DNA of 50,965 bases, from the IMG/VR virus record IMGVR_UViG_3300037420_002479, positions 1-50,965 of that record. The stretch is one strand, 5' to 3'. The stretch is from a virus. Taxonomy: Duplodnaviria; Caudoviricetes. Shown piece by piece: positions 19,472-42,555 of the stretch (the first letter of the stretch is position 1; every line of letters begins with the position of its first letter). The notes under the pieces were generated by a model. That model was not told where the DNA came from. It searched no databases and was given only the letters and a program-made list of their open reading frames with translations. The position numbers and the translations under genes were made by a program.

Positions 19472-19584
19472 ACAAAACAACCCCTCCTCGACAGTGAGAG
19501 AAGGGGCATATATTCAGGGTGCATCTACCAGCCCACCATTCTAATTGCTCATAGGAACCCTACCTCAGAAATTTGGGCTAGGGC

Positions 19585-22500
19585 ATGACTGAGATTGCTG
19601 GGACTTTGGGGATTGAGCTGGTTTTACTCAGAGACGGGTTCAAACGTGACCTACAAGCGCTGCAATCGCTCAAGGGCGGACAGATTGCCCTACAAGCTGT
19701 TTTAGATACACGGCTGCTAAGGCAACAAATCAACAATCTCTCCCAACTTAAGCCCACGATTCAAGCTCAAGTTGCCATTACCAACCTGAATCAGGTTGAA
19801 TCGCAGCTTAAAACGCTAACCCGCGATCGACGAATCAGAGTTGGGATTGAGCTTGACGGTGCAGGACTCGATCGATTAGAAGCGCGATTAGGTCAACTAG
19901 GCAATAGATCTGTCAGGGTTGGCATTGCGGTTGATGACAGCGCGATTGATCGGCTCAATGGCAAGTTAAATGCACTGAGCGATCGTGTGGTTCGCGTTGG
20001 CGTAGCGATCGATGAATCAGGATTAACTAATCTAGAGAAACGCTTAGGGCAGTTCAGCAACAAGTCGTTTAGGGTGACGGCTCAGGTTGATGACAGGCAG
20101 TTAACCGCCCTCAATAAGCACCTTGACCTCAAACAAAAGCACTTCACCCAAGTCAACAACTATTTCAAATCATCCCCACTCACGCCACGAGTTGATTTCT
20201 CTGGATTAGATGCCCTCGATCGACGGCTGAATGACTTTAAGAATCGCTCGATCGATATCAAGGCGAATATTGCCGATGTTCGGCAGTCGATCTCCCAGCT
20301 CAAGCAAGAACTATCGGGAATTGAAATTCCGGTCACGGTTCGCACTGCCAACGGAGTGGCGTCATCCGCAACACAAACAATCTCACCCAAGATCGACTCA
20401 TCCAGCATTGAATCTGCCATTACAAAGGCTCTAGATAATTCGTTTAAGGGCTTTGAGAAGAATCTAGAGGGAGCTTTCAAGAAAGTTGGCAAGGGCAACA
20501 TTCTGGGCGGGTTGGGCGATATTCTCACCGCTCCCTTGAAACTTGCCACGGGTGCGATCGGAAGTGTCTTTTCGGGCGTTGGCTTAGGCGTTGGGCAGCA
20601 AATCAGCAAAGATTTAGGCAAGGGCATTTCTGAAGGAATTGACGCCCAACTAGCTCCCATCATTGGCAGTTTCCGGCTCGTGGGGCGTGAACTGGCATCG
20701 AGTCTCGTTAAAGAGTTGGTTGATAGCTTAGGGCAAGATGCAACCCTAGTTCAAGGCGTTATTCAAGATCTAGTAGGCAAGGATAACATTCTCGTTGAAT
20801 CGGGGGCAGTCAGATCTCGCCAAAAGCAGCAGCAGCAAAAAAACACTGTTGAAGCTACTCGATTCTTTCAGAATGAGGCGGAAAGCGCCAACGTAAGCCA
20901 GCTCCAAGCCGAACGACAGAAGTTAGGGGGGCAATTTGCCGCCGTTCAAGAATTAAAAGCAAACACGGCTCAAAAAACTGAGGCAGCCGCCAATAAATTA
21001 GGGGCGGGCAAGGTTAAACAAAACATTGAGCAGGCATCAGCTCAACTTAAGCAGAATCAGGAAACCGCCGCCACTCTCAATAAACAAATCAATTCAGAGA
21101 TCGGTGGCATTGAATCTGCCCGCAAATCACTCAGCCAACTAAAATCGAGCGGCACCGCCGATGCTTCTCAAATTGCTGAGGTTGAGAGTGGTATCGCCCA
21201 AAAAACCGCAAAATTATCACAACTGCAATCTGAGCTAGGGACTACCACGAGCAGTAGCAAGCAGATTGCCGAGCGGATCACTCGCTTAACTGACTCCCTA
21301 GCTGAAATTAATCGAACCGCTGAATCCTACTTTAGAGAAGAAGTTGAGCGGATCACCGAGATTGAGGATAAGCTGAGCGTTGCTCAACGTAAGTTAGAGC
21401 AAAAGCTACAGCCGTTTGAGGCAATTGAATCTTTAGGCAAAATTCGCACGCCCGAATCGATCGGGGCAGAGGTTCAAGCTCGGAAACAGAACATTTCAGG
21501 GCTGCAAGGTAAGCAGTCACAGCTTAGAGCTAGTGCAAAAGTAGATTCTACAGCGATCGACGAGCTGAGGCAGGCAAGGAATCAGGAATTACAAGTCCCT
21601 GATGCTCTGCAAGATAAAGATAAGATCCAATCGATCGAACGTCGAATCATTCAGATTCAAGAGCGGCAAGCGAAACGCAAGGCACTATATAACGACATTG
21701 GCAAAGCGATCGCTCAAGAGGAAACGCAACTTAGATCGCTCGATGCTCAAAGTGCTCAGCCTATTGCAGTACAGGCAAGAGCGTCGGGGCTAAATGCCTC
21801 TCTCTCGCAACTCGCACAAGATGAAGCTGAATTAAATCGGCTCGCTCAAGAGGCACTAGCGAAAGGAGATGAGGCGCGGGCGCGGCGACTCTTAGCGGGT
21901 AAAAAGCAGGCTCAAGAGGATCAGCAGGCTCTCCGCTCTAAGTTGGCATTACTAGGAGTTGCCCCCGCTGAAGTTAAAAAAACCGCTGCCAAGCCTGCTG
22001 AGACTCGCCCAGCAGATCAATCTAAAGCCTTGCCCGCGTCGCTTCAAAGCATCTTAGAAGAAACCGCCGCCCTTTCTGGTGTTGAGATTCCCAAAGGCAA
22101 AGCCCCCCGCTTAGTCGTTTCAGACAGCATCCAGGGCACAGGTCAATACGACAGCGATACCAATACCGTTGCCGTTAGCTCTCAAGTCGCTAAACAAGCG
22201 TTTCAGGGCAAATTGACCGAGGACATGGTAGAAACCTTTGTCCACGAGTTTCGCCATGCGGTTCAGAGTGCATTTGGGCAGATTGATGCACTGACTCAAG
22301 GATCAGCAACGCCACTACTTCAGCCAACCGCCGAAGAGTTAGCCAATGCCCCGATCGTGCGGGGGCGAACATTAGCCCAACGGATTGAGGGATCAGCTGC
22401 CAATGTTGCAGAGCGTAACCCCAACGTCAGCCGCGATCGGACTGAGAAACCGGCTCGATTATTAGAGGCAGATGCCTATACTTTCGCTGCTCGCAATACC

Positions 22501-25500
22501 TCACAAGTGTTTCAGAAGGTCGGGAAAGACGCTGCGATCGCTGACACGCTGCAACTCAGTGGCATTGGCGGACAGAAGATTCGAGACGCCTATAAGTCGC
22601 TGCAATCGGTGGTGGGTGAGGTTGGATCAACGGCAAAAGCAGCAGGGCTGAATATCGCCAAGGAATTAAACCAAGAAGTTGCAGATATTGCTCAAATTGG
22701 GGGTAGGCTCAAGCCGCTGATTGCGAAGTTAGGGGAGCTGGATGTTCTCCCAGCGGATGAGATTCGCCAAGTTCAGCAGCAGTTTGAAGTCGAACTTGCA
22801 GAGATTGAACAAGCAAAATCGCGGTTGAGAGGTGTTCTCGCAAATGCTCAGCAAGACCGAGCCATCGACGTTGCGGTTCAGAATCCGTTAGACTCAACCG
22901 TTGATCCCGAGGCGCTGCAAGGGTTTATCGAAAGAAAGATTGCCGCATCATCTCAAGGTGCTGTTAATCCTAAATATCAGATTGCTGATCCATTCGAGCC
23001 ACCCAAATCGCTGCAAAAACGGGCACAGGAATTCGGACAGTCTGCATCTAATGCGGCGGGCAAGGCTAAGAACTTTATTTTCAACCCCGATCGTGAGGTG
23101 ACGATCGATGTAGACAAACTGAGTAATTTTGCTCAGAAAGCTGGCGGCGTGGCTCGGGGCGGGATTGAGACGGGCAAAAATGTCGCCAGTGCTGTGCAGT
23201 CCGTAGCCACCTCTCAGCCCGTGCAAGCAGTGCTCGGGGCTACGGGCGGGGCTGTGAAGGCGCTCGGGGCAGTTGCTAAAACTAGCTATCAGCTTGCATC
23301 GGGTCTGGAATCGATCGCGCTGGATATGATCCCGCTCGGTCGGACCATCAAGGGGGTCACGAAGCAGCTCGTGATTCCGGCTGCTGGGTTTGCGGCTGCG
23401 ACTCATCTTCTCCCAGGTGGGGCGATTGCTGCTGAAGGGTTGAGCCACCTGGTTGGTGGGGCAATTACACCGCTAACTCAGGCAGCAGGCGGAGCGGCAT
23501 CGGCATCAGCATCAAGTCTGATTGCTCAAGCCATCCCTCAAACGGCAACGCTGTTTGGGCATACCGTTCCGAATGTACTTGCGCCTGCAGCTGCTCCCAT
23601 TACAAGCGCTGTCACGGGAGCCATTCAGGGCTTAAGTGCTTCCGTTGGAGAAATGGCAGTGCAAGCGGGCACGGTGATTCTCGGTGGCAAGTTGCTTCAG
23701 GGCACAGTGGGCAAGGCAGGAGAAGCAGCACTCAAGTCTGCACTGCCTCAAGAATCAAACACAAGAGCTTTACCTGCTGCATCTACTCGTGCATTGCCCC
23801 CAGTCAGAGAGAAGTCTGGAACCGTCGCGGTTACTGCTAATGCCGTTTCTCCTCAAGTTGAGATTGCCCCCACCTTTGAGCAGTTCACTAAGCCTCAGTT
23901 ACTGGCTGCCACACGCAAGTTAGGCATTCAGGGAACCAATACCAAGACTTCTAAGGATGACCTGGTTGAACGGTTGAAAGGATTTCGCAATCAGTCCCAA
24001 GTCGATCAAGTTCTCACGCAGGTTCAGTCTGAAATTGGCAGAGATGGAAAACCGATCGCTGGGTTTAATCCGGCTGCTGAAAAAGCCGCATTAAAGCAGT
24101 TTCAGAAGGCTGAGAAAGACCTCCATCGCAAGCTAGAGCAACTTGCCAAAGCATCTGGGAAAAAGCGAGAAACGCTACTGAACGAAATTCTTTCAGGGAT
24201 TGATGAGCAAACAGCCGCGATCGATGCGGCGAAAGCTCAAAACTTCTCTGGTGAAACGGTTAAACAACTCTCTGGCATTCAAGGGCGCTTACGCAATGCA
24301 GGCAATAACAATCCTGCATTAGTGGATGCTCGAAACGAACGGATTACCACAATTCGCAGTGCGGCGGTGGATTCGCAGAATGCCCGGATTCGGGGACTCG
24401 CTAGAGTTGCCATTGAAGAAGCGGAACCTGCCACAGCAACACTCGGCACAACGCTGAAAGAAGGATTTCGCAAACTCACCAACTTTGCGGCAAAGCAATT
24501 TGAGGTACAGCCCCAACCGACAATTAAGGGGACATTGGGCGCGATCGCCAAGTCACCCAAGGCGCGAGATTTAGCCACTGATCTAGCAGTCAATGGAGCC
24601 GGATTTGCTGCCTCACAGCTAGGTAGTCAGTTCGGCATTTTGCCAGAGCTAACGGGCGATCTGGGGGGTGCATTAATTGCTCGTCAACTCATCTCTCGTG
24701 GTAGACCCAGCGCGAAAGATTTGACGGGTGATTTGGCAGGGTTCGCGATCGGTAACACAACTGCCAAGATTGCCAATGCAGGACTCGATGCCCTCTCAGG
24801 TGTGGTTCCCGGCGCTGGTCTGCTGAGGGCACTACCGTTTAAGGGTGCGATCGCGGCATCACTCACGGTTCCCAAAGTCACCAAAGCCGCAGAACAGTTT
24901 CAGCAATCCCCAATTGAGGGACTTGCTAGGGCGCAAACGCCCACAGGCTTTACAGGGCTAGTTGATAAATTTAGATCTCTGCTGCCCAATAATGAGCGCA
25001 AACTTGCCCAAATTCAGCGCAATTATGAATCGATTTATCGGGAGATTGCAGCAGTATCAGGGGCAGCATTCGATCCTGCCAACATTCCCAAACTCTCGAT
25101 CGATAACAAGCGACTGAAGCAGCTCGGAGCGCAAGCCTATTTCGAGATTGAGCAGAATTTAATCACTATAGATCGAGAGATTGCCAATGCTCTTGCTAAA
25201 CCTGCAAACGAGCTGAGCAAGTACACCGATAAGCTCACGGGGTTGATCCACGAGGGTAGACACAGCATTCAACTCGACGGCGGACGCCTCAGCATTGATC
25301 AGGCAGCAGCATCGGGGCAGCTCGCCAATGGTGACAAACTCAGCATTGATCAACGGGCACAGGTTGAAAAATCAGTCGATGTTGCCCGCAAGCAAGGGGC
25401 AAGTGCTCAGCAGCTCGAATCGGTGAGGAAACTTGAAACCGATGCCTACGCCTTTGAAGGTAACGCGGGGCAGATTGTTTCTAAGGCATCTCGTCCTGAT

Positions 25501-28500
25501 CCATTGCAAGCGGCACGTCTTGAGGCTGAGCTTGCATCGAGAAGCATTGGGTCAGGTGCAACAATTCAAGGGTTGACTAGCGATCGGGATATTGCGATCG
25601 TGGGTCGGGCGCAGAGCAATGCTGAGAAGTTCGATCAAAAAGCAGCCCGAATTCAGCGTAGTCAGGACAAAGTATTTGCCAAGCAGGTTGATCCGCTTCA
25701 GGGCGGTGGTGAGGATGCAGCATCACGGCTCAAGGGCACGATCGCGAAGGAAGCGGGCGACTATGCTAAGGCGGCGAATGAAAGCCTCAAGGCACTTGGC
25801 GTCAATCTTCCAGGCATTGGTAAAGCGTTGTCAGGATTGTTCTCAGGTGGAGCATCTGATGGCTTTAGCAAGATCAATGGTGGCTTAAAGTTCCTCGCTC
25901 AGAATGCAGCGATCGCGATTAAGGGATTTGTCGCGTTCCAGGTTCTATCTACTGTTGTGCCTGCTATTCAGCAGTTTGCAACCGAATCAGTTAACGCAGC
26001 AATCAAGTTAGATAACCTTAAGACCGCCCTCAGTTTTGGCTCAGGTGGGGCGAGCAATGCTGTCAAAGATTTAGCATTCGTTCGAGGCGAGGCAACACGG
26101 TTAGGGGTGCCGCTGTCTTCCCTGCAAGATGGATTCGTGAAGCTCTCGGCGTCTACCAAGGGCACCTCAAGTGCTGGGCAAACCACGAAAGATTTGATTA
26201 CGGGGTTAGCTCAGGCGTCTACCACCTTGGGGTTGAGTGCTGAAGAGTCGGGCGGAGCAATTCTGGCGTTGTCTCAAATCGCCAGCAAGGGTTCCGTCCA
26301 AGCCGAAGAATTGCGGGGTCAGCTCGGTGAGCGAATTCCAGGGGCTTTTGGCATTGCGGCTAGAGCGATGGGTGTTACCGAGGGGCAATTAAATAAGCTC
26401 TTAGAAACGGGTTCAGTCACGGCGGATGAGTTTTTGCCGAAGCTCGGAAGGCAGTTGCAGATCGAATTTGCGGGTAGCGCCGAATCTGCCTCAAAGAACG
26501 TTCAATCGTCCTTTTATCGGCTGGGCAATTCGTTTCAGCAGTTACAGGAAAAGACTGGAAAGGTGTTTACACCGAATACCTTTGCAGTTGATGGGGCGGC
26601 AAAAGGGATTGATGCTCTTGGTAATAGCCTAGGCGTTGTCATTCCTTCCGTCATCACGTTTGGCTTAGTGTTGGGCGTTCCGCTTCTAGCTCCATTGTTT
26701 GAAGCCGTGACGGGCATGGGTAGAGCGAAGATAGCATTGGATGCTTTGGGGAAAGGCTTTAACGCAGTTAAAGGCAATATTGGCAGTCTTGCGCTAAAAG
26801 CCGGAATTTCGACGATCGCAACTCTTGGTGCAATCGAAGCGGGTCGAACGATCGGGGAAGTTTTCAGCCTGGACGAGGAAGGCAAGCAGTTTGAGGATCT
26901 TGGAAATAAAGGGCAGCAGAATCTAGAGCGGATTGCAGAAGCGGCGAAACGGGCGAAGGGTGAAATCGATAAGGTTTCTGAGCCGAAGAAGTCCACGTCT
27001 AAAGGCTTTGATTTTACCCTCGGCTTAGCAAGCGCTACAGGGCTAGATCAAACGGGTTTTTCGCTCAAATCTGACGATCTGATCAAGCTTAACAACAAGT
27101 CTTCGATCTCTGGATTTATTCCAGGCTTCAAACCATTTGCAGATTTCGCTGGAAGATTCAGCGATCCAATTGCGCAGATTTCATCACGACTCACAGGAGG
27201 ACGGTTTGAATTCAGACCTGGAACCACTGTTGAAGAATTGCAGCAACAGCGTGACCAAATCAGTTTCAACCGCTTTCTTGACCAAGGAAACAATTTAGCC
27301 CAGCAAGCGTTTAGCGGTCAGATTGATGTCACGGGCAAAGATGGCAAGCGTCAGCAAGTCGATATTGGCACGTCGCTGAAAGACCTTAAGGCAACTGACG
27401 ATCGTATTCAACAACTTCGCAACGAACGAGGTCAAGTTGCCTCACAACCCAAGGCAGATAAGGTTCGTGTCGGGAGGATTGATGATGAGATTCAGAGGCT
27501 TACGACGGAACGGGCACAAAAAGCATCTCCGCTATTAGAACTGCAAGCCTCAATTCAATCAAAAATTAGCGACGATCAAAACCTACTGAAAGATGACAAG
27601 CTGTCAGGATCTAGAAAAGATTCGGTAAGAAGCGAAATTCAGGGCTTGGAGAACGCTCAAGCATTGTTGAATCGCCTGCAAAATCGCTTTGAAACTGCTG
27701 CTGATACGGTTTCAGATTTTAAGGCGGCACTCAACGCTATGAACGTGGAGCTAGAGCAGGCGAAGCGAAACGCAGACCTAAAGTTCAGTATTGATACCAC
27801 GGGTGATATCAAAGCTCAAATAGAGAACTTCGGTAGCGACATCAACGCAAGTATCAAGGCTCCAGTTCAAGCCGCAATTCGAGAGGCAGAGAGATCTCAA
27901 GCTCAACTAGAAGATAGTCGTGCGGCAATTGAAAGGGCTGAGAAGAAGGCTCAAAAGCCAGGTGTTAAGTCGGCTTTAGACAATATTCGCACCTCAACAG
28001 GTCAGTCGATTTCGCTTGATTCAAGCGTTAAAGAGTTGGAGGATGCGAAAGCGGCGTCTGGTCAGGACGAAGCTAAGAAAAAGCTGATTGATGAATTAAT
28101 CGATCGGAAGCGGGCACTCGATCAAGAATCTGAGCTAGAGCAAAAAGCTTCAACAGATCGACTTAATGTTCGTAAGGCTGAAGAACAGGCGAAACTGGCT
28201 TTGATTCAAAAAGCTTCAGCAGAGCGTGAGTCGCAGATTAAACGTGACTCCAACACAGCCCAAATTGGGTTGCTTCAGAAACAAAAAGCTGGAAACACCT
28301 ATGAATCTGATATCCAGGTTGAGAATGCGAAGCAGACGCTCTCGAAAGGTCAAGCTGAACTGGACAGCACCAAGCAACAGTTAGATGCGATCGAGTCTGC
28401 CTACGCTGCCAATCAAATTTCTGCTGAAGAGTATGAGAAGCAACGCAGGGAAATCGGCGACCGCATCAGCGATCAGGAAGTTCAAAATGCTCAGAATGAG

Positions 28501-30234
28501 GTTGCCTTAGTCAAAGCAACCGAGCAGGCGAAATTATCTGAACTCGATCGGGCGGCTCGTAAGCGTGAAGCCTCTATCAAACAAAATGACTCACGGGCTA
28601 CCGCATCACTTGTCGGAGACAAAACGAACGGTTTAGTTTCCGACGATGTATTCTCAATTGCCCAAGCCAAAAACTCACTCACCACGACTAATGCCCAACA
28701 GTCCAACGTTCAAGCCCAGTTAGACGAGATTGAGCAGGCTTACGCCCGTGGGATTGTCAAAAAAGAGGAATACGAAAAACGATCGCAGGATTTGACCAAT
28801 AGCCTTGCTGATTTATCTGTGCAGAAAGCGCAGAACGAACTCGCTCTGAGAGAAGCGATCGACAAAAAAGCGATTGAATCTCAGAAGCGGTTGTTAACGG
28901 GCACTGGGTTGGATCAGGGGTTGCTTGGGAACCAAGGGCAAGCTGCCCTGATTGGTATCGATTTAGCGGTGTCTCAGAAGCGACTGGGCAAGCAAGAAAC
29001 CGAAGCAAGTAGTCTTCAGCAGCAGTTAACCGAAGCGAGCGGGGCGGTGAATGCAGGCGGAGATATCTTTGCTCAATTTGATAATGCCAAGAAGGTTGGT
29101 AGCGCGAAGGAGATTGAAGAGAGGCTGAACCGTATCACCGCCAGTTCTAGCGAGGAACGGACTAAGATTCGGGAGCTGGAACTGCAACGGGATCTTAAAC
29201 TGATTCAAGCTCGTGCTGAAGCCGAGGAGCGAGAACTAGATCGAAAGAAATCGGCTTTGGATTCTGAATTGAAGTTGAGCCAAGCGATCGCGGATTCTCG
29301 CCAGAGTCAATTGAAAATTGGTATCGATCGTAACGGCGAATCGGTTGACGCCTTCAAACAGCTTCAGGGTAAAAATGCCGGATATCAACTGAGTAAAGTT
29401 CTGAAGGATCAGTTGACTGAAGCAGGCTTTAATACCTCAAATACCCAACAAGGGGTGATTGACGCTCTGCAAAACAAACAGGCACTGGAGGCTGAAGCTG
29501 ACAGAGAAAAAGTAGCGGCGTTGTTGCAGCAACAGGCTCTAGAGCGAGAATCAGTGAAGCTGGGTTTACAGAAAGAGCAAATTAGCGCTCGGACTGCATT
29601 AAATGAAGCGAAGCGAGTCAAGGCACTGGCGAAACTGAATCTTGCTGAGGCTCAAGGGGGACTGGCTAAGGCGCGGCGTTCTGGCAACGCAGACGAGATT
29701 CAATCGGCTCAAGAGCAGCTTAAATTTGCTCAAGAGGCAGTGGGACTGGCAGGGGAGAATAAGGGGTTAGCTGAACTCAACGTGCAGTCCGTTGACAAGC
29801 GGGTTCAGAATGAGCTTGCAGCAAGCGATTTTAGACAGGCACAGCAGCGCTCTGAACTGGATGCTCAGAATCAAGCTGCTTACCGGGCACGTCGCCGTGA
29901 AGCTGCTTCGACTGCCGACGAAGTTAAATTTACAGGTCAGCTTAATTTCGCTAACGTCGCACCAAGCGCTGTTCTGCAAGCTCCTGAAACGACTGGGCTA
30001 CCGTCCATTGTTCCGACCGTGACGCCCAACACGAATCAGGTAAGCCAAACAGTCAGCACAGCGGCTTCAACGACAAACAATGCCGATGTAGTCGCCAAGT
30101 TGGAACAACTGTATACCGGGATCATTGAGTTGGCGAATAAGCCTCGTTCTCTCACCTTCAACACAGCTCAACCTGTGGACGATTATGCGAAATTCATGAA
30201 TGATGCCGCAGGCTCTAGCTTGCGTTCTCAGTAA
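19585..30234 (+). CDS. Tape measure protein, 3549 aa, multidomain
   Basis: Tape-measure domain (ALSQIASKGSVQAEELRGQLGERIPGA), long coiled coils, two HExxH regions. Confidence 0.92.
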   Translation: MTEIAGTLGIELVLLRDGFKRDLQALQSLKGGQIALQAVLDTRLLRQQINNLSQLKPTIQAQVAITNLNQVESQLKTLTRDRRIRVGIELDGAGLDRLEARLGQLGNRSVRVGIAVDDSAIDRLNGKLNALSDRVVRVGVAIDESGLTNLEKRLGQFSNKSFRVTAQVDDRQLTALNKHLDLKQKHFTQVNNYFKSSPLTPRVDFSGLDALDRRLNDFKNRSIDIKANIADVRQSISQLKQELSGIEIPVTVRTANGVASSATQTISPKIDSSSIESAITKALDNSFKGFEKNLEGAFKKVGKGNILGGLGDILTAPLKLATGAIGSVFSGVGLGVGQQISKDLGKGISEGIDAQLAPIIGSFRLVGRELASSLVKELVDSLGQDATLVQGVIQDLVGKDNILVESGAVRSRQKQQQQKNTVEATRFFQNEAESANVSQLQAERQKLGGQFAAVQELKANTAQKTEAAANKLGAGKVKQNIEQASAQLKQNQETAATLNKQINSEIGGIESARKSLSQLKSSGTADASQIAEVESGIAQKTAKLSQLQSELGTTTSSSKQIAERITRLTDSLAEINRTAESYFREEVERITEIEDKLSVAQRKLEQKLQPFEAIESLGKIRTPESIGAEVQARKQNISGLQGKQSQLRASAKVDSTAIDELRQARNQELQVPDALQDKDKIQSIERRIIQIQERQAKRKALYNDIGKAIAQEETQLRSLDAQSAQPIAVQARASGLNASLSQLAQDEAELNRLAQEALAKGDEARARRLLAGKKQAQEDQQALRSKLALLGVAPAEVKKTAAKPAETRPADQSKALPASLQSILEETAALSGVEIPKGKAPRLVVSDSIQGTGQYDSDTNTVAVSSQVAKQAFQGKLTEDMVETFVHEFRHAVQSAFGQIDALTQGSATPLLQPTAEELANAPIVRGRTLAQRIEGSAANVAERNPNVSRDRTEKPARLLEADAYTFAARNTSQVFQKVGKDAAIADTLQLSGIGGQKIRDAYKSLQSVVGEVGSTAKAAGLNIAKELNQEVADIAQIGGRLKPLIAKLGELDVLPADEIRQVQQQFEVELAEIEQAKSRLRGVLANAQQDRAIDVAVQNPLDSTVDPEALQGFIERKIAASSQGAVNPKYQIADPFEPPKSLQKRAQEFGQSASNAAGKAKNFIFNPDREVTIDVDKLSNFAQKAGGVARGGIETGKNVASAVQSVATSQPVQAVLGATGGAVKALGAVAKTSYQLASGLESIALDMIPLGRTIKGVTKQLVIPAAGFAAATHLLPGGAIAAEGLSHLVGGAITPLTQAAGGAASASASSLIAQAIPQTATLFGHTVPNVLAPAAAPITSAVTGAIQGLSASVGEMAVQAGTVILGGKLLQGTVGKAGEAALKSALPQESNTRALPAASTRALPPVREKSGTVAVTANAVSPQVEIAPTFEQFTKPQLLAATRKLGIQGTNTKTSKDDLVERLKGFRNQSQVDQVLTQVQSEIGRDGKPIAGFNPAAEKAALKQFQKAEKDLHRKLEQLAKASGKKRETLLNEILSGIDEQTAAIDAAKAQNFSGETVKQLSGIQGRLRNAGNNNPALVDARNERITTIRSAAVDSQNARIRGLARVAIEEAEPATATLGTTLKEGFRKLTNFAAKQFEVQPQPTIKGTLGAIAKSPKARDLATDLAVNGAGFAASQLGSQFGILPELTGDLGGALIARQLISRGRPSAKDLTGDLAGFAIGNTTAKIANAGLDALSGVVPGAGLLRALPFKGAIAASLTVPKVTKAAEQFQQSPIEGLARAQTPTGFTGLVDKFRSLLPNNERKLAQIQRNYESIYREIAAVSGAAFDPANIPKLSIDNKRLKQLGAQAYFEIEQNLITIDREIANALAKPANELSKYTDKLTGLIHEGRHSIQLDGGRLSIDQAAASGQLANGDKLSIDQRAQVEKSVDVARKQGASAQQLESVRKLETDAYAFEGNAGQIVSKASRPDPLQAARLEAELASRSIGSGATIQGLTSDRDIAIVGRAQSNAEKFDQKAARIQRSQDKVFAKQVDPLQGGGEDAASRLKGTIAKEAGDYAKAANESLKALGVNLPGIGKALSGLFSGGASDGFSKINGGLKFLAQNAAIAIKGFVAFQVLSTVVPAIQQFATESVNAAIKLDNLKTALSFGSGGASNAVKDLAFVRGEATRLGVPLSSLQDGFVKLSASTKGTSSAGQTTKDLITGLAQASTTLGLSAEESGGAILALSQIASKGSVQAEELRGQLGERIPGAFGIAARAMGVTEGQLNKLLETGSVTADEFLPKLGRQLQIEFAGSAESASKNVQSSFYRLGNSFQQLQEKTGKVFTPNTFAVDGAAKGIDALGNSLGVVIPSVITFGLVLGVPLLAPLFEAVTGMGRAKIALDALGKGFNAVKGNIGSLALKAGISTIATLGAIEAGRTIGEVFSLDEEGKQFEDLGNKGQQNLERIAEAAKRAKGEIDKVSEPKKSTSKGFDFTLGLASATGLDQTGFSLKSDDLIKLNNKSSISGFIPGFKPFADFAGRFSDPIAQISSRLTGGRFEFRPGTTVEELQQQRDQISFNRFLDQGNNLAQQAFSGQIDVTGKDGKRQQVDIGTSLKDLKATDDRIQQLRNERGQVASQPKADKVRVGRIDDEIQRLTTERAQKASPLLELQASIQSKISDDQNLLKDDKLSGSRKDSVRSEIQGLENAQALLNRLQNRFETAADTVSDFKAALNAMNVELEQAKRNADLKFSIDTTGDIKAQIENFGSDINASIKAPVQAAIREAERSQAQLEDSRAAIERAEKKAQKPGVKSALDNIRTSTGQSISLDSSVKELEDAKAASGQDEAKKKLIDELIDRKRALDQESELEQKASTDRLNVRKAEEQAKLALIQKASAERESQIKRDSNTAQIGLLQKQKAGNTYESDIQVENAKQTLSKGQAELDSTKQQLDAIESAYAANQISAEEYEKQRREIGDRISDQEVQNAQNEVALVKATEQAKLSELDRAARKREASIKQNDSRATASLVGDKTNGLVSDDVFSIAQAKNSLTTTNAQQSNVQAQLDEIEQAYARGIVKKEEYEKRSQDLTNSLADLSVQKAQNELALREAIDKKAIESQKRLLTGTGLDQGLLGNQGQAALIGIDLAVSQKRLGKQETEASSLQQQLTEASGAVNAGGDIFAQFDNAKKVGSAKEIEERLNRITASSSEERTKIRELELQRDLKLIQARAEAEERELDRKKSALDSELKLSQAIADSRQSQLKIGIDRNGESVDAFKQLQGKNAGYQLSKVLKDQLTEAGFNTSNTQQGVIDALQNKQALEAEADREKVAALLQQQALERESVKLGLQKEQISARTALNEAKRVKALAKLNLAEAQGGLAKARRSGNADEIQSAQEQLKFAQEAVGLAGENKGLAELNVQSVDKRVQNELAASDFRQAQQRSELDAQNQAAYRARRREAASTADEVKFTGQLNFANVAPSAVLQAPETTGLPSIVPTVTPNTNQVSQTVSTAASTTNNADVVAKLEQLYTGIIELANKPRSLTFNTAQPVDDYAKFMNDAAGSSLRSQ

Positions 30235-30322
30235 GTCAGGAGTTCCAGACTACTGATGACTGAATGAGTGCCAAAATTTTACAATAGGGGTGTATAAGTA
30301 GAACGGTTTGCCTAGAGTAACC

Positions 30323-30880
30323 ATGTCAATTGAGTTTCGGTTTCATCCAGAAAAAGCTGTTGAAGCCGCAGCGACACTTCTAAAGCTGCATGGTAAGCCT
30401 ATGAAATATCTAGGCTTACTTAAGATGCTTTACATTGCTGACCGAATTGCATTAGAACGCATAGAGCAACCAATTACAGGTGATCACTACGTATCAATGA
30501 AGTATGGTCCTGTTCTTAGCGGTGTCTATGACCTGATCAAGGGGAAGCCGGTTGATAATGCCTTGCCTCTCTGGTCTAAATTCATTTCTCATCGTCACAA
30601 TAATTACGTTCGTCTACTGAATGATCCAGGCAACGAAGAACTCTGTGAAGAGGAGGAAGAAATTCTTCGGGGGGTTTACAAAATCTTTGGTCATATTAAC
30701 CCTTTTACTGTTGCCGATTGGACTCACGGTCTTCCAGAGTGGGAAGACCCTGGTAAGTCTATGAACCCAATTGCAGTAGAAGACGTTCTCAAGAACTTGG
30801 GTAAAAGTGACGAGGAAATTGAGGAAATTGAGCAAGAAGCCCTACGAGAAGCGTATTTAGATAAAGTTTTGCATGTCTAG
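30323..30880 (+). CDS. Panacea (DUF4065/SocA/GepA) domain antitoxin-like protein
   Basis: LLKMLYIADR...ITGDHYVSMKYGPV...WTH.LPEW. Confidence 0.85.
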   Translation: MSIEFRFHPEKAVEAAATLLKLHGKPMKYLGLLKMLYIADRIALERIEQPITGDHYVSMKYGPVLSGVYDLIKGKPVDNALPLWSKFISHRHNNYVRLLNDPGNEELCEEEEEILRGVYKIFGHINPFTVADWTHGLPEWEDPGKSMNPIAVEDVLKNLGKSDEEIEEIEQEALREAYLDKVLHV

Positions 30881-31262
30881 CATCACCATTAATTTGGGGG
30901 ATGCTTTTCTGATAGATACACCTCCCACTGGCGAACATCTCTATATCGCCATTGCCCAAACTTCTGCAAGCAACTACCTGTTTGTCAATGTAACTACTCG
31001 GAGAAATAATTCCGAAACTTCTTGCATTCTTCAACCGGGTCCAGATGTGCCCTGTTTTATTACTCGTGAGTCTGTCATCGCCTACCAATTTGCTCGCGAT
31101 ATGGACGCTGCCCAATTAGCCTCATTGATTACTGTTGGCAGTCCTATTCCAAAAGGGCGTTGTTCGATGGCTGTTCTTGCACAGATTCAGCAGGGTGGTC
31201 TAGCCTCCAAACGCTTAACGAACAAGCACAAGACAGCTCTTAAATCCTTCTTAGGGGTTTGA
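30873..31262 (+). CDS. Putative toxin partner of the Panacea protein (PemK/MazF-like topology suspected)
   Basis: Overlaps the antitoxin stop; GDAFLI...HLYIAI...VNVTT...FITRESVI pattern. Confidence 0.5.
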   Translation: MSSITINLGDAFLIDTPPTGEHLYIAIAQTSASNYLFVNVTTRRNNSETSCILQPGPDVPCFITRESVIAYQFARDMDAAQLASLITVGSPIPKGRCSMAVLAQIQQGGLASKRLTNKHKTALKSFLGV

Positions 31263-31302
31263 TTTCAGCGCTAAACACCGCAGACCCTTCTTTCCGCTCT
31301 CA

Positions 31303-31388
31303 GTAGGAATTCTGGGGCAGTTTGAGCGCTGCCCTGTATGACCCGCACTTTAGTCCTCAAGCTCGTTGCAGCGCGCCGTTCAGTTTAA
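31303..31388 (+). pseudogene. Truncated duplicate of the promoter and first 7 codons (MTRTLVL) of the distal tail gene at 43557
   Basis: gtaggaattctggggcagtttgagcgctgc...atgacccgcactttagt is nearly identical to 43521-43573. Confidence 0.85.
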
Positions 31389-31686
31389 TTTGCGCTTGGG
31401 CAATGCCTTGGTCCTGTTAGTTTGCACGAACTTTGCCCCACTTTAGAGAGGAGTCCTTCATTTTTGACCTTATGCAGAAAGCTACTACCTATCTGAGGCG
31501 AATTCGCATTAGTTCCATCATCGGATACTTGTGTTGATGGGCACGTCGCCCGCTTTCAGACATGAAGTCTTTGTAGATTGTTTATCATAACCAGACTAGG
31601 CTGGTATCGAAGATGTATACTTTGAACGATTAAGTCATCAACGTAAAATTTTAAGCTTGATTTACAGGGGTTGGAGGGAGGTTTGA

Positions 31687-32418
31687 TTGAGTATTAATCA
31701 AGCAGCAATTGATGAAGTGTTTCCAAGCAACCCACTTCGAGATGTTACCTTTGAAGTTCGCTTTCCGTTCAGCTTGCGGGTAAACGGAGCAATTTACGAC
31801 ATTCAGTCGGAGCTTGAGAGTGACTACCCAGTGGTTAGCCGGAAAATGCTAGAAACCGACGAAGATGACTCTAAAAATCTTTACATCTTCACAAATCGAG
31901 AAGCAAGCCAACAAGTTATTGTCAGTGAGGACTACCTCACAATTTCTTTCAACTATTACAAAAGCTTTGAGTACTTCCTTCAAGAGATACTGAAATGTAC
32001 TAAGTTAGTTTTTCACTCTTCTTCGATTAAGGCGTTGACGAGGATTGGGCTTCGATACGTTAACTATTTTAGCCACCCAGAAGCAGTCGATGATGCAGCA
32101 TGGCTTAAGAAGATTGTCAAACCCTTGATCAGCTCTGAGCGGATACAGATGGCACAAACAAAAAGATTTGTGGCAGAAGCTTTATTTAAGAAGCCAAATT
32201 GCTTCTTGAGCAGTCGCACTGTCTACTATCAAGGAGATGAAACAGATGAAGATAAGGAGAGTTTTTACGTTCTAGATATTGATGCTTATACCGAGCAATG
32301 TGTAGCGTCTGAAGAACTAGAAGCAATACTGCATAAGCTTCATCACGAAATTCAGTTAGAGTTTCTGGCAAACATCACTGACGAGTATAAAAAAGAGATG
32401 CGAAGAAAGAGTAAGTAG
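31687..32418 (+). CDS. TIGR04255 family protein
   Basis: NPLRDVTFEVRF, Y.SFE.F, RIGLRYVN, YVLDIDAY motifs. Confidence 0.8.
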   Translation: MSINQAAIDEVFPSNPLRDVTFEVRFPFSLRVNGAIYDIQSELESDYPVVSRKMLETDEDDSKNLYIFTNREASQQVIVSEDYLTISFNYYKSFEYFLQEILKCTKLVFHSSSIKALTRIGLRYVNYFSHPEAVDDAAWLKKIVKPLISSERIQMAQTKRFVAEALFKKPNCFLSSRTVYYQGDETDEDKESFYVLDIDAYTEQCVASEELEAILHKLHHEIQLEFLANITDEYKKEMRRKSK

Positions 32419-32421
32419 ATT

Positions 32422-33201
32422 ATGGCTCGTAAAGAAAATCTTTTAGCTAAACCGAACGCTAGACAGATAGCTATTGAGCGAACAGGAGAAAGTTCAGTCG
32501 ATGCGATTATTGAAGAAAAGCTGCATACGAAGCGAAGTGGGCGAGCGCCTATCCTGCTTCCAAAACTCCCCCTAGAACCGCTAAGCGGTTCTACGACTGA
32601 TGCCGTTTCTAGAACTAGATTTTTTCAGCAGCTAGCAAAAAACTCGGCAAATTCAGATATAAATACTGAATTAACTAATTCAATTGCTGCGAGTCTTGGC
32701 AGGATTGAAGGCTACAGATTAAGGCGAACTGAAGATGAACAGCGTGAGCGAGATCAAAGACTACGTGCTTATCGCGAAGCTTTTCGCCAGGATGCTTGGA
32801 GAATTTACTGCTATCCCCCAGAAGCGCAATCGATAAACAAAAAAATGATTGCATTGATAGACGACGCCCTCGCAATGGCTATACAGGAACAATTGTCGCG
32901 TTCTGACACAGCCGCTATTGAATCAGTCGAAATCTTACGACTAATTCAGCGGCAACCGATGACTATGCAGAACATTGCGGATAGCTTCAAAGTCTCGATT
33001 GAAGATGTTTATCCACTTGTCGGAAAACTTCTTAGTCGCGGCTTTATTGACAAACTGGATGGAAATTTCTTACGAAAGCTCTTTCCATTCATTGGAGCTA
33101 ATCGTCGTCGTGTAACTATAATGACAGATCCTAACACCCACTTTACATTGACGCTGAAGGGGTATTTCAAACTGAATCCTGTTATTACAATTAACAATTG
33201 A
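32422..33201 (+). CDS. Hypothetical protein with C-terminal winged-helix-like region
   Basis: ILRLIQRQPMTMQNIADSFKVSIEDVYPLVGKLLSRGFI. Confidence 0.6.
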   Translation: MARKENLLAKPNARQIAIERTGESSVDAIIEEKLHTKRSGRAPILLPKLPLEPLSGSTTDAVSRTRFFQQLAKNSANSDINTELTNSIAASLGRIEGYRLRRTEDEQRERDQRLRAYREAFRQDAWRIYCYPPEAQSINKKMIALIDDALAMAIQEQLSRSDTAAIESVEILRLIQRQPMTMQNIADSFKVSIEDVYPLVGKLLSRGFIDKLDGNFLRKLFPFIGANRRRVTIMTDPNTHFTLTLKGYFKLNPVITINN

Positions 33202-33202
33202 T

Positions 33203-33922
33203 GTGCTGTTTGCGCTGATAAGTCTAATAAAGGATTGGGCACCCTGGGTTCTGCTTGCCTCGTTTCCATCAGTGCTCAATTTGGTAATTGCTGTTCAAGA
33301 CCTGCAACGAGAAAGCAAACGATTACCTTTCTTTAACCCGTGCGCCTGTTGGGGTTTCTGGATTTTTTGCCTTGTGCAGCTACTGCTACCTGCAATTGCA
33401 TTTTGGCTGTTCTTTTCAATTGACAAAAAGCCGTCAATCGACCTTGTACTTTATATTAAAGCTGGTCTGTTTGGTGTTGGCTTCAATGCCTTCGTTAATA
33501 ACTCAGTACAAGTTGGACCGATTGGGTTTAATGTCAAGGCTTTCTATGATGTGTTTATCGGAATCGCGATTGAGATGATTCTGGCAAAAGAGGCGAGCCG
33601 CACCGCTATCTTCTGGGCAACGCTGACAAGTGAGTTTAGTAACAGTGATACCAAGTTTGAACCAGCGCTGGATTTTTTGACCCAATACGTTAAAACAAGT
33701 GCCGCTCTCGACAGCTCGTTAAAGAGCGATGCCCGTACTAGCATAATGCAGCAGCACGAAGAACTAATAAAGACTGCGAAAAGAAAGAAGTTAGCACCTC
33801 AGAAAGCTGATGCAATTGTCAATGCAATAAAGCAAATTATTAGGCGATGCGATTTGCCTCATGCCTTGCATGAATTTGGCTGCACACAAACTTTAGACAA
33901 ATGCTTTAAGAAAAAACCTTAG
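33203..33922 (+). CDS. Hypothetical membrane protein (N-terminal TM helices plus soluble C-terminus)
   Basis: 3-4 hydrophobic segments; coupled to upstream ORF. Confidence 0.65.
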   Translation: MLFALISLIKDWAPWVLLASFPSVLNLVIAVQDLQRESKRLPFFNPCACWGFWIFCLVQLLLPAIAFWLFFSIDKKPSIDLVLYIKAGLFGVGFNAFVNNSVQVGPIGFNVKAFYDVFIGIAIEMILAKEASRTAIFWATLTSEFSNSDTKFEPALDFLTQYVKTSAALDSSLKSDARTSIMQQHEELIKTAKRKKLAPQKADAIVNAIKQIIRRCDLPHALHEFGCTQTLDKCFKKKP

Positions 33923-33987
33923 TGTTCTTAAGGAGCAGTTTCAGAAAATGTCAAGACAACGCTTATGAATCCTCTGCCAACCCGCTC

Positions 33988-34287
33988 TTAGTCCTCCCAA
34001 ACCAACTCTCGCCAGTTGGGAGGAATTAAGCCTTTTCTGAGTGCCTTGAAGACAAGTCCTTGATGACTTCGATCTGCTCTGAGTGTATGGCAGATCACGC
34101 ACAGCGTTCTTAAGTTTTCATCGATATTCATTCCTCCTTTGCTTAAAGGTGTTTTGTGATCAATGTGGCAGTCGTTGAGATTGACGGGTGTGTTGCAGTG
34201 TTGGCACTGACCACGATCGCGGTCGTAGATGCGCTGTCTTGTCAGTTTCCAGATTTCTCTGGGTTGTCTTCTGTGTTTCCTTGCCAT
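33988..34287 (-). CDS. HNH endonuclease (99 aa); start ATG lies inside the last array tract
   Basis: CQHC...HIDHKTPLSKGGMN...NLRTLCVICH. Confidence 0.9.
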   Translation of the reverse strand: MARKHRRQPREIWKLTRQRIYDRDRGQCQHCNTPVNLNDCHIDHKTPLSKGGMNIDENLRTLCVICHTLRADRSHQGLVFKALRKGLIPPNWRELVWED

Positions 34288-34615
34288 GCCTTGCCGTACC
34301 CTAACTGACCGCGCCGAGACCCACCGCGCCAAGACTCACCACACCTGACCAGACCTGACCCGGACGCACCAAGCCTAGTTGCGACTGATAGCCGCTTTAA
34401 TATGAGTTCTGTATAATCCTTGCCTTGCCAGAACTCGCCTCACCGCACCTGAACACGCCTTGACCCGCCTTACCGAGCCGCACCATGCCTGATTGCGACT
34501 GATAGTCGCTTTAATATGAGTTCTGTATAATCCTTGCCTTGCCTTGCCAGAACTCACCGCGCCAGAACTTAACGCACCGCGACTCGCCGTACCGCGCCTT
34601 GCCACGCCAGACCGC
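34278..34615 (-). ncRNA. Putative guide-RNA array: three (GKY-NN)n tracts with 16, 14 and 19 internal NN units, separated by two 41-nt constant repeats
   Basis: Strict 5-nt periodicity; constant repeats 34490-34530 and 34376-34416 are 38/41 identical with a GCGAC-TATCA-GTCGC hairpin; NN strings decode to TMP segments. Confidence 0.85.
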
Positions 34616-34621
34616 GTGAAC

Positions 34622-35239
34622 CTATGCCGCTTTCTTTAGCTGTAGTTCAGCCACATCAAACGACACAAGTTCAAACCTACCATAGCCAACGGAACGCCCG
34701 TCAGCGATGCCCGTAAATCGACCCGCATCAATGACAGCAGCTTCCATCTCACCGCGAGAGACGATCGTTTTATCCCACTGAATATGAAAGCTGGCTGTCC
34801 ATCCAGACGATGCGCCGATACGATAGCGGAGATTTCTTGCCCGTGTGCTTGGGTTTCTTACGCCCTGAACATCCAGAAACACAGGCAGTTCAGGATTTTG
34901 CTCAGGGATCTCTGGAACTCGCAACACCTCACCGTCGCGCTCAATGAAGATAAAATCTTCTTCAACTTGCAATGTTGCAGAAATGAACGGCTGCAATGTG
35001 CCACGTTTACGAGGGGTGTGTTTTGCTCCATCTCTAATGGCTGCAAACAAATAGCTCGACTTGACGTACAGCCTACGATCGCTAGTCATCAAAACGGTTT
35101 TCTTCCATTCTTCAGGATCGTGCCCTGCTACCCCTGTTTTCTCTTGCTTTTCCAGTGGTAGTGCATCGGGTCCGAAATGATGCCATAGCATGGCTCGAAT
35201 GCCAGAAATTTGAATGTTAGCTCTGAGAATATTTGCCAT
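34622..35239 (-). CDS. Stand-alone Cas7/RAMP-like protein (putative guide-RNA-binding effector)
   Basis: N-terminal beta strand and loop, LYVKSSYLFAAIRDGA helix, C-terminal Gly-rich loop GIADGRSVGYGRF; directly upstream of the array; no other cas genes. Confidence 0.75.
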   Translation of the reverse strand: MANILRANIQISGIRAMLWHHFGPDALPLEKQEKTGVAGHDPEEWKKTVLMTSDRRLYVKSSYLFAAIRDGAKHTPRKRGTLQPFISATLQVEEDFIFIERDGEVLRVPEIPEQNPELPVFLDVQGVRNPSTRARNLRYRIGASSGWTASFHIQWDKTIVSRGEMEAAVIDAGRFTGIADGRSVGYGRFELVSFDVAELQLKKAA

Positions 35240-35261
35240 GATGTCTCCTGAAATATTGTGT

Positions 35262-35723
35262 TTAACCCAACTGATACACGCAAATCTGCTCTGCCCTCTC
35301 TAGCCCCAGCTCTTGCAGAATGGAGTCTGCGATCCGATGAGGAAATTGAGTGAGGGAGAGTTCAACCTGATTTGCAAACACACCTAAAAAGCGAGATCGT
35401 CCAAAGGTGACAACTGCCTCCTCAATCAAGGCGTCCAGATTGCGAATGATAGGAATCAACAGATCGATCTCATCACCGCCACCCTGTAAACCGTCTTGAA
35501 CGTAGCGGATTAGAGGAGCGGCTTCAGGAGGTAAACAGGAGTGTTTCAGAACTAACTCTGTGTCAATGAGATCAAGACAGTCTTTCGCGAGTTCTCTAGC
35601 CGCTGTTTCTGCCTGCTCTACGGTAGACACAGCGTATTCTTTGCCGTTGATGAGGAAGCACGTTAAGCCGTAGAAATCATCTTGAAGCTTTCGGATTTCC
35701 GTTCTAGTTGCTGTAGTTACCAT
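35262..35723 (-). CDS. Hypothetical protein in the Cas7-like operon
   Basis: 153-aa ORF co-oriented 22 nt upstream of the RAMP gene. Confidence 0.65.
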   Translation of the reverse strand: MVTTATRTEIRKLQDDFYGLTCFLINGKEYAVSTVEQAETAARELAKDCLDLIDTELVLKHSCLPPEAAPLIRYVQDGLQGGGDEIDLLIPIIRNLDALIEEAVVTFGRSRFLGVFANQVELSLTQFPHRIADSILQELGLERAEQICVYQLG

Positions 35724-35795
35724 GACTTGCCCTAGTTCCAGGATGGGGATGTAGCGATCTGGACAGTCACCCGTTTGGGTGACTGTCGTAAGGCT

Positions 35796-36110: not shown

Positions 36111-36187
36111 TGTTATTGGTTCAATAAAGGACTTTCAAGAAAGGCACTGTCTCTGATTGGCGTTGGTGACAGTGCCTTTCTGTATTC

Positions 36188-40278: not shown

Positions 40279-40331
40279 CTAAGTCCCTCTCAGTGAAGCG
40301 CCCGCTGCATCATTCATAAACTTAGCGTAGT
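40279..40331 (-). pseudogene. Inverted third copy of the extreme TMP 3' end (YAKFMNDAAGASLRGT*)
   Basis: Matches YAKFMNDAAGSSLRSQ* (30234) and YARFMNDAAGQSLRSN* (42554). Confidence 0.85.
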
Positions 40332-40850: not shown

Positions 40851-42554
40851 TCGGCGAAGCTGGCTGAGATTGAGCGTTCTGCCCGTAAGCGTGAGGCTCA
40901 AATTAAGCAGCAGGAATCACGGGCAACGGTTGGGCTAGTCAGTGACAAAACTCGCAAGTTAGTTTCTGATGATGAATTCTCGATCGCCCAAGCGAAAAAC
41001 TCTCTCACCACCGATAACGCTCAGCAGTCCAATGTTCAAGCGCAGATTGATGAATTAGATACAGCATTTGCCCGTGGCATCGTCAAACGTGAGGAGTATG
41101 AAAAGCGCAGTCAAGATTTAGCCAATAGTCTTGCTGACTTGAACGTGAAGAAGGCTCAAGATGAACTGGCAATTCGAGAAGCGATCGATAAAAAAATACT
41201 GGAGTCTCGTAAACGGCTTATCACGGGCACTGGACTCGATCAGGGATTGCTTGGGAATCAAGGGCAAGCCGCATTGATTGGTGTTGACATCGGTGAATCG
41301 CAGAAACGGCTCTCTGCTCAATCGGCAGAATTAGGTAATTTACAGCAACAATTGCAAGCAAGTTCTGCTCCCATCGAGGGCGATATTTTTGCTCAGATTG
41401 GTGCAGGCGATCGGGTGGCTCAAGCGAAGGAGATTGAAGAACGGATCAACCGGATTACGGCGAGTTCTATTGAGGAACGGACTAAGAAGCGTGAACTCGA
41501 ACTGCAACGGGATCTCAAGCTGATTGCAGCGCGGGGTGAAGCTGAGGAGCGAGAACTTGATCGCAGGAAGTCAGCACTAGACGCTGAATTGAAGCTATCC
41601 CAAGCTGTTGCGGATTCTCGCCAAAGCCAACTCAAGGTAGGTATCGATCGTAACGGAGAATCGGTTGATGCGTTTAAACAGCTTCAGAATAAGAACGCTG
41701 GATATCAACTGAGCAAGGTTCTGAAGGATCAGTTGACTGATGCGGGATTCAATACCTCCAATACTCAGCAGGGAGTGATTGACGCTCTGCAAAATAAACA
41801 GGCATTGGAGGCAGAAGCTGATAGAGAGAAGGTTGCGGCATTGTTGCAGCAACAGGCTCTAGAGCGTGAATCAGTCAAATTGGGCTTACAGAAGGAACAA
41901 ATTTCAGCCCGTACCGCCCTCCTTGAAGCCAGGCAGGTTGAACTGCTTGCCAAGAAAAACTTGACTGAGGCTCAAGGGGGACTGGCTAAGGCGCGTCGCT
42001 CTGGCAACGCAGACGAGATTCAGTCTGCACAAGAGCAGCTTAAATTTGCTCAAGAGGCAGTGGGATTAGCGGGAGAGAATAAGGGACTGGCTGAACTCAA
42101 TGTGCAGACGGTTGATAAGCGGGTTCGCACTGAACTACAGGCAGAGGACGTTAAGCAGGGTCAGCAGCGGTTTGAGCTGGATGCTCAGAACCAGGCGAAT
42201 GGTAGAGGGCGTCGCCGTGAACTCGCCTCAACTGCCGATGATGTGAAGTTCACGGGGCAACTCAATTTTGCCAACGTCGCACCGAGTGCGGTTCTGCAAG
42301 CCCCTGAAACGACTGGGTTACCGTCAATTATCCCAACGGTTCAGCCGAATACCAATCAGGTCGATCGAACGGTGAACACGGCGGCATCAACGACGAATAA
42401 CAGCGACGTGGTTGCCAAACTAGAGCAACTCTACAACGGCATTATTGAACTGGCGAATAAGCCACGGAGTCTGACCTTTAATACAGCTCAACCCGTAGAT
42501 GACTACGCTAGGTTCATGAATGACGCAGCGGGGCAGTCGTTGAGGAGTAATTAG
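40851..42554 (+). pseudogene. Orphan 5'-truncated TMP C-terminal copy (about 567 codons, open frame)
   Basis: Frame is open from 40851 (SAKLAEIERSARKRE...) and colinear with TMP 28525-30234; no convincing start at the homology edge. Confidence 0.88.
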
Positions 42555-42555
42555 G

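Follow-up and report, generated by a model that had tools for sequence, protein, structure and literature searches.

This analysis concerned the genome of a tailed phage of 50,965 bases (Caudoviricetes; IMG/VR record IMGVR_UViG_3300037420_002479), here called the window since the whole record was analysed, and focused on a small cassette that lies beyond its tape-measure protein (TMP) gene and encodes a Vipr protein, three guide RNAs (vrRNAs) and an HNH nuclease. The cassette probably works as an RNA-guided, free-standing homing endonuclease. All three guides read the TMP gene, and the carrier's own allele is likely to be spared because it mismatches each guide at codon positions 1 and 2, while the TMP genes of relatives are likely to be cut. 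For the Vipr-HNH lineage as a whole we lean slightly towards a widespread, natural, reprogrammable homing drive of phages, which would land in virion operons, acquire guides that read sister alleles of the essential gene next door, cut these, and be copied across with the resistant allele, leaving codon-swap scars and a patchwork of TMP, portal and terminase genes.

The cassette occupies the minus strand 4-5 kb beyond the TMP stop codon, and consists of a gene for a protein of 205 amino acids (aa), three tracts of 5-nucleotide G(G/T)Y-NN repeats, two 44-nucleotide tails and a 99-aa HNH gene. Its parts, and the guide sites in the TMP gene, are arranged as follows:

19585..30234, plus strand: resident TMP gene, an open reading frame (ORF) of 3549 aa with Pfam TMP_3 at aa 2135-2324 (E=6e-29); holds the three mismatched guide sites
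26278..26313, plus strand: site 2 (guide 2), aa 2232-2243, IASKGSVQAEEL; 19/24 bases matched, with Ser and terminal Leu swaps, plus Ser versus Lys/Asn
26443..26487, plus strand: site 3 (guide 3), aa 2287-2301; 20/30 matched, with 4 swaps plus F>L, A>G, V>I and Q>E
28504..28545, plus strand: site 1 (guide 1), aa 2974-2987; 23/28 matched, with 2 Leu swaps plus A>Q and A>S
33988..34287, minus strand: gene for the HNH nuclease (99 aa, counted from ATG); the last repeat units of guide 3 overlap the start codon; Pfam HNH above cut-off
34301..34375, minus strand: vrRNA guide 3, 15 target-reading GKY/NN units; the repeats run on to about 34271, into the HNH start
34376..34419, minus strand: vrRNA tail 2, conserved, with a 6-base-pair hairpin; this tail is also in the array of the related prophage G001
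34430..34489, minus strand: vrRNA guide 2, 12 units, then AA AA
34490..34533, minus strand: vrRNA tail 1, conserved, with a 6-base-pair hairpin
34549..34618, minus strand: vrRNA guide 1, 14 units, then AA AA AA
34622..35239, minus strand: vipr gene, a 205-aa RAMP protein

A profile of 50 sequences built on the 205-aa protein matched the Vipr of phage SUSP1 (36pp) with E=1.8e-7, its predicted fold matched chains of the Csm complex (Foldseek E=3e-8), and the G-rich C-terminal loop was invariant, giving a RAMP fold with a G-loop. A single-sequence Vipr query of the viral contigs found no relative, whereas the profile search of the same contigs did; scans of viral contigs for the tail motif and of metagenomes for the site-3 motif returned nothing, or nothing new. 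The vrRNA tracts have the VIPR form of 9-16+ GGY/NN pentamers followed by a structured tail, part of the units being GTY, and neither a CRISPR-like repeat family nor a Cas Pfam match was found in the window. By the definition in bioRxiv 10.64898/2026.04.26.720920 the cassette is a VIPR system, and it agrees with every feature of that definition that a sequence can reveal; the vrRNAs are presumably expressed and the HNH protein presumably recruited. Among 71 aligned HNH homologues, D43, H44 and H67 were invariant, N58 was present in at least 90% and the zinc-finger Cys residues were conserved. The catalytic motif is intact, the gene lies outside any intron or intein, and the model of the 99-aa protein (pLDDT 92.6) contains no separate DNA-binding domain. 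Specificity would come from RNA, and for this reason the cassette is said to work like the free-standing homing endonucleases rather than to be a member of them.

When guides were read with a skip of one nucleotide, the top-ranked match of each in the window was to the TMP gene, sense, in frame and with the skip on the wobble base, although the raw scores of guides 2 and 3 tied with other places in the window. Only a skip of 1 gave in-frame TMP matches for all three guides; skips of 0, 2 or 3 did not. Shuffling of units reached the nucleotide score in 0/300 cases for guide 1, 2/300 for guide 2 and 59/300 for guide 3 (which alone is not significant), and 0/200 shuffles reached the amino-acid-compatibility score of any of the three. 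The mapping of guides to TMP is beyond chance. Mismatched bases total 20, with 11 in 8 codons where guide and resident use different codon families for the same Leu, Ser or Arg (L/S/R swaps) and 9 in 7 non-synonymous codons; swaps account for roughly half of the mismatch.

A preliminary description of this DNA had listed ten pairs of guide and codon as Leu, Ser or Arg, nine of them swapped. All ten pairs were found in the sequence at 26278-26313, 26443-26487 and 28504-28545, and the excess was borne out, with the count corrected to 8/9. The position removed is Leu CTC against guide TT, which is a Phe>Leu change and was ruled out as a synonymous swap because TTT (Phe) stands there in 6/6 close relatives. 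The same description passed over the residue changes, which make up 9/20 of the mismatched bases. It had also treated the final CT of site 1, the one match, as perhaps structural; guides 1 and 2 and one relative's guide do share the ending GA CT AA AA, but the terminal position was excused at site 1 yet counted at site 2, and dropping both gives 7/7. Its statement that L/S/R swaps are the only synonymous changes at codon positions 1 and 2 has to be widened to stop codons (TGA versus TAA/TAG), one such change being seen in a related carrier. Three further features it overlooked, the HNH gene, a displaced half-target and the clade-wide proximity of targets to the cassette, point to homing.

The excess of swaps at the guide sites is real. 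The 8/9 swapped compares with 3.7 expected given the resident's codon family (P(>=8/9)=0.002), with 2.5 expected under an unconditional null (P=1e-4), and gives P=0.006 under a saturated-usage null; these nulls were drawn from seven related sequences outside the sites, which are not mutually independent. A background taken from the second TMP copy in the window was 28/116 shared L/S/R positions swapped. The swap rate was not equal to background, either in the window or in the other loci surveyed, and the comparison proposed in the preliminary description leaves its claim unrefuted. Because the code skips the wobble base, the only free escapes in a conserved protein are family swaps of Leu, Ser and Arg (and stop); self-escape would use these alongside tolerated residue changes. 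Outside the guide sites, TMP aa 2135-2330 has Leu TTR at 12/21 positions against 117/353 in the whole gene, possibly scars of earlier guides.

Among named sequences, the phage is closest to prophages of Myxacorys chilensis (L116/G001) and M. californica (L117, L226/G002), and for that reason its host is probably a related cyanobacterium. Guide 2 matched the resident at 19/24 and 7/9 relatives at 21-23, with two diverged alleles at 15 and 17, while guide 3 matched the resident at 20/30 and 5/9 relatives at 24-28 (best 28/30), the remaining four giving 19-21. Guide matches among relatives reached 24/24 and 29/32 overall, and the first 11 units of guide 2 were perfect in 8/141 distinct TMP alleles (including L117, L119 and L220) against 18/22 in the resident, although 50/141 alleles score below the resident over these units. 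For guide 1, four relatives scored 22-24/28 against 23/28 in the resident and no full-length relative was ahead by more than one base; since those four score like the resident, the true target of guide 1 appears not to have been found. A phylum-wide search of 401 genomes returned relatives of site 1 in two Myxacorys genomes only. The closest protein found, P0242 (known as protein only), carries 15/15 of the residues implied by guide 3 and 13/14 of those for guide 1, and L001 also agrees with guide 3 at 15/15. The M. chilensis prophage G001 has a cassette of the same kind with two different guides, both mapping to TMP, and its guide A fits L226 (26/28) better than the prophage's own allele (18/28). 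M. californica also has prophages that lack the cassette and carry alleles with a better match. Taken by guide, a carrier allele that differs at the site together with cassette-free relatives that match better was found for guides 2 and 3, G001 guide A and a portal family described below, but not for guide 1 among full-length relatives. The self/non-self discrimination first proposed from the codon swaps is supported to this extent, as guides 2 and 3 fit relatives better than the resident, guide 1 fitting both about equally.

The origin of the mismatches is mixed, and the idea that the resident was recoded survives in part. Two swaps, L2984 and R2289, are private to the resident. At L2243 and L2291 the guide is the odd one against a clade-wide state (differing from 5/6 and 6/6 relatives), three of the remaining swaps are polymorphic and one is not polarisable. 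Within aa 2135-2305, at columns where four relatives agree at codon positions 1 and 2, resident-private changes numbered 4/21 in the sites and 0/64 outside (P=0.003); all four were at site 3 and three were non-synonymous. A strong resident-private excess was rejected at site 1, where it was not significant (P=0.07-0.15), and for G001 guide A (P=0.53). The patch at site 3 is nearest to a distant vipr-less allele, L227, with G2288, I2293, AGY2298 and E2300 common to both, and its import by recombination would therefore be as likely as new mutation. AGG may derive from AAG. It appears that resistant states were mostly sorted or recombined from standing variation, with a minority arising anew in the carrier, rather than by wholesale recoding. 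The TMP gene is mosaic in short patches, which is compatible with co-conversion but no proof of it. One DNA sequencing run yielded six small pieces and no variant alleles.

The position of the targets is a further line of evidence. In 24 whole records (the window, G001 and 22 IMG/VR Vipr records above 30 kb), 20 carried guides, 45 in all, and the best genome-wide match lay nearer to vipr than expected by chance, whether every guide was counted (P=2e-4) or only the best one in each record (P=8e-6, n=20). On the latter basis, the median share of the coding genome nearer to vipr than the target was 0.10. Matches with E<=0.2 fell within 10 kb of the cassette in 19/21 cases, and weak control matches were uniform. 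The target gene varied with the position of the cassette and included portal, terminase, major head, tail chaperone, tail and TMP genes (PHROG named 8/22 candidate ORFs); several of the target ORFs without a PHROG name are long and, by our own reading, TMP-like. Well-supported Vipr clades mix target neighbourhoods, some of the neighbourhood labels being guessed.

Self matches and swaps were surveyed in 83 loci: 41 viral loci, the best 80 of 221 metagenome Vipr loci, the window and G001, less 40 under 3 kb. After exclusion of tracts of fewer than nine units, low-complexity tracts and duplicates, and with up to three terminal units trimmed, 99 unique guides remained in 52/83 loci. Scores on unrelated loci served as the null for self matches, with E<=0.05, and swaps were counted in called genes. 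Guides matched their own locus in 29/99 cases against about 5 expected. The 26 self-like matches outside the window, from 23 loci, had 17/31 positions swapped against 7.0 expected (P=3e-5), counting positions where the guide has CT, TC or CG and the residue is the same, with the expectation taken from each gene's own usage; over all L/S/R positions the count was 29/46 against 19.0. Non-significant matches, as a control, gave 18/54 against 15.5, and intermediate matches 3/10 against 1.9. Wobble pairing as the source of the excess was rejected, as 15 of the 17 swaps are true mismatches and 2/17 are G-U wobbles. An HNH homologue stood next to vipr in 78/83 loci, and the same HNH family occurs at cyanobacterial chromosomal loci.

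Individual loci showed the same tendency to differing degrees. In the portal family (the best 80 of 117 alleles), the guide of L099 matched its own allele at 23/28 and 59/78 non-carriers scored higher; a sister carrier, L098, scored 21/28 at the same site, where it has AGA, AGC and AGG, and 2/78 scored as low. The guide of L098 itself scored 18/34 on self and up to 29/34 elsewhere. For L097, the guide matched self at 15/20, with Arg, Leu and stop-codon swaps, and 42/70 non-carriers scored no higher; at this terminase-end site the carrier has TAG, and the guide and 51/70 relatives have TGA. A search with the tail gene of L086 returned no sequence besides L086 itself. In two related phages a GGY/NN tract follows the TMP domain at a distance of about 2.8 kb (L018:3243-3312 and L022:12153-12222), with no significant self match. 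Cyanobacterial genomes of the same order as G001 (L197, L205-L215) hold modules of vipr, a single short guide and HNH, five of which share a near-identical short tract, and the L197 module lies among CRISPR-Cas-like genes. The vipr gene of G112 is split into two pieces (C1:9276-9956), and G113 and G115 each carry two vipr genes about 3 kb apart, the second being divergent.

Remnants at the cassette junctions form another line. Between the TMP gene and the next tail gene, window 30235-43478 is made of stacked insertions that comprise a SocA/Panacea antitoxin gene with a neighbour, the VIPR cassette (inverted relative to that of G001), an antirepressor gene, Uma2, three TMP-end remnants and a duplicated tail-gene start. 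The remnants are:

31279..31357, plus strand: remnant of the TMP stop and the start of the next tail gene, a duplicate of 43520-43576
40279..40331, minus strand: inverted remnant of another TMP 3' end
40854..42554, plus strand: displaced older TMP 3' part, 83% identical in amino acids to the resident

The displaced part at 40854-42554 is homologous to the resident from unit 9 of the guide-1 site onwards, and units 9-13 match at 10/10 against 8/10 in the resident. G001 also has a displaced TMP end, which starts at unit 6 of guide B, agrees with that guide at 12/12 over units 6-11 (9/12 in the current allele) and is fused directly to the next tail gene. The three guide sites together make up about 1% of the TMP gene. 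A remnant of 47-49 base pairs of the HNH end adjoins the TMP stop in G001 and in the cassette-free L117. Just ahead of the displaced copy in the window, a 164-aa ORF (40356-40850, plus strand) has its stop codon 3 bases before the start of the copy; it has no Pfam, PHROG or Atlas match.

Under the homing model, Vipr and a guide RNA would bind the TMP gene of co-infecting sister phages, the HNH protein would nick or cut at the bound site, and repair on the carrier's template would bring in the resistant TMP patch along with the nearby cassette. Cutting, immunity and transfer are all presumed. Several observations weigh against this model. Guide 1 matches the resident at 82%, above the 80% target cut-off of the discovery preprint, and no better full-length allele is known. 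G001 guide A mismatches its own allele through residue changes, and neither of its 2 informative positions is swapped. Clade-wide, 6/17 informative loci lack any swap and residue changes (140 codons) exceed swaps (29 codons). Displaced half-targets accompany 2/32 self-like matches only, and half-sites as a general feature of the clade were rejected; moreover, the non-carrier L226 also has a short TMP-end remnant, which makes the G001 breakpoint less improbable than it appears. Proximity could arise if guides form from nearby DNA during recombination. The HNH protein is of a small type that stands alone, and among solved structures its nearest relative by sequence is 5h0m, which we take to be a packaging-associated phage HNH protein, and its fold matches are weak. 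Finally, the characterised VIPRs silence transcription (bioRxiv 10.64898/2026.04.26.720920 and its companion preprints).

The main rival is interference among siblings without homing: the cassette would cut or silence virion genes of related co-infecting phages or prophages, and autoimmunity would maintain the mismatch to self. This is a possible though distinctly less probable account. It is consistent with every self/non-self result, fits the better-matching, cassette-free prophages of M. californica, and corresponds to the role published for type II VIPR, where guides that target vrRNAs score lower on self than on non-self. Alone, however, it leaves unexplained why targets adjoin the cassette wherever it is located, and why guide-perfect, displaced half-sites stand at cassette junctions.

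A quite unlikely alternative treats the HNH gene as a separate gene, selfish or related to packaging, that rides on a VIPR whose own role is silencing, with guides made locally from DNA exchanged near the cassette. The relation to 5h0m and the weak fold matches would suit this, and a local origin of guides would explain proximity without cleavage. It is opposed by the occurrence of the same HNH family after vipr in 78/83 loci and on cyanobacterial chromosomes, by the small size of the protein (99 aa, no separate DNA-binding domain in the model) and by a start codon built into the last guide. Attenuated autoregulation, in which imperfect guides damp the phage's own late genes, might be suggested by self matches of 67-82% and by VIPR silencing through binding of coding DNA (10.64898/2026.04.26.720920), but is very improbable, as the guides encode the residues of relatives and not of the resident (guide 3 agreeing with P0242 and L001 at 15/15) and swaps exceed even the saturated expectation, which indicates avoidance and not retention. 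Neutral divergence, with guides from a distant TMP allele and swaps by drift, is equally hard to credit: Leu swaps do reach 30-40% between close relatives, AGY stands at Ser2234 in 58/137 TMP alleles and two of the eight swaps are clade-wide states, but the window excess gave P=0.002-0.006 under conservative nulls, 23 other loci gave P=3e-5 with a flat control, and resident-private changes cluster in the sites (4/21 against 0/64, P=0.003).

Elsewhere the window encodes a terminase, portal and capsid beside the 3549-aa TMP (Pfam, PHROG). A group I intron (Rfam RF00028, 91 bits; 16891-17118, plus strand), without an endonuclease ORF, interrupts a tail gene (ORF 16256-16918, tail-tube-like by our own reading); it had no match in relatives L001, L116 and L226, and a partial match in L228. 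An NsiR1-like Rfam match barely over the gathering score lies at 19472-19530 (minus strand), immediately upstream of the TMP gene, and relatives align only to the part adjacent to it on the TMP-proximal side.

Among known systems, type II VIPR, represented by phage SUSP1 and a Pseudomonas fulva prophage (bioRxiv 10.64898/2026.04.26.720920,.720927 and 10.64898/2026.10.15.759431), is similar in its RAMP-fold Vipr, GGY/NN guides with a structured tail, one-nucleotide wobble skip and carriage by phages, and in being aimed at other phages with the self match below non-self. The window cassette differs in its HNH partner, its many GTY repeats, its targets, which are alleles of the virion gene that adjoins it in the carrier, and its self match of 67-82%. 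The type II preprints describe silencing of satellites and prophage regulators, and argue that wobble-skipping blocks synonymous escape; no self match of at least 80% is reported there for type II of P. fulva or for types III and V, and the lower self than non-self scores of vrRNA-targeting guides were already known from the competition work. Types III-V, which are nuclease- or helicase-associated, resemble the window cassette in having a predicted nuclease as accessory gene, and the legend of fig. S21 names an HNH-domain Vap (10.64898/2026.04.26.720920). Types III and V, however, are there described as host defence in defence islands; the window lineage lies instead inside phage virion operons.

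The other parallel is with the SegA-G and MobA/E enzymes of phage T4 (intronless homing and marker exclusion) and with the HNH proteins of Skunavirus, whose genes likewise stand amid conserved genes (PMC2988022, PMC12724721). The T4 enzymes cut far from their own gene, at a distance of hundreds to thousands of bases, and co-convert the flanks (PMC2988022). They share with the window a target at such a distance in an essential neighbour, a carrier allele that is polymorphic at the site, and mosaic tracts. Cleavage and biased inheritance were shown for Seg and Mob and are predicted for the window cassette. Seg and Mob rely on a protein DNA-binding domain, while the specificity of the window cassette would come from exchangeable guide RNAs, and one cassette could therefore be retargeted to the neighbour of each new insertion site. 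The idea of an RNA-guided nuclease that helps its element to spread also has a parallel in the retention of TnpB/IscB OMEGA transposons and in plasmid gene drive. TnpB and IscB reportedly target the empty donor joint by contiguous pairing; the window cassette is instead aimed at a homologous coding allele, its code is gapped, and no transposase was found.

In the available text of the three VIPR preprints the term 'homing' is absent and L/S/R swaps were not found, and a literature search, mostly of non-subscription papers, gave no report of VIPR homing or of L/S/R escape. If the homing model is true, VIPR, which in 2026 was described as silencing competitors, would gain a selfish role in homing, and the cassette would be a natural, RNA-programmable counterpart of T4 intronless homing. 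The six-fold codon families form a loophole in the published claim that wobble-skipping blocks synonymous escape, and the matched pairs of self and non-self alleles could be used to measure the mismatch tolerance and guide acquisition of VIPR. The model also offers a testable cause for the mosaicism of phage structural genes.

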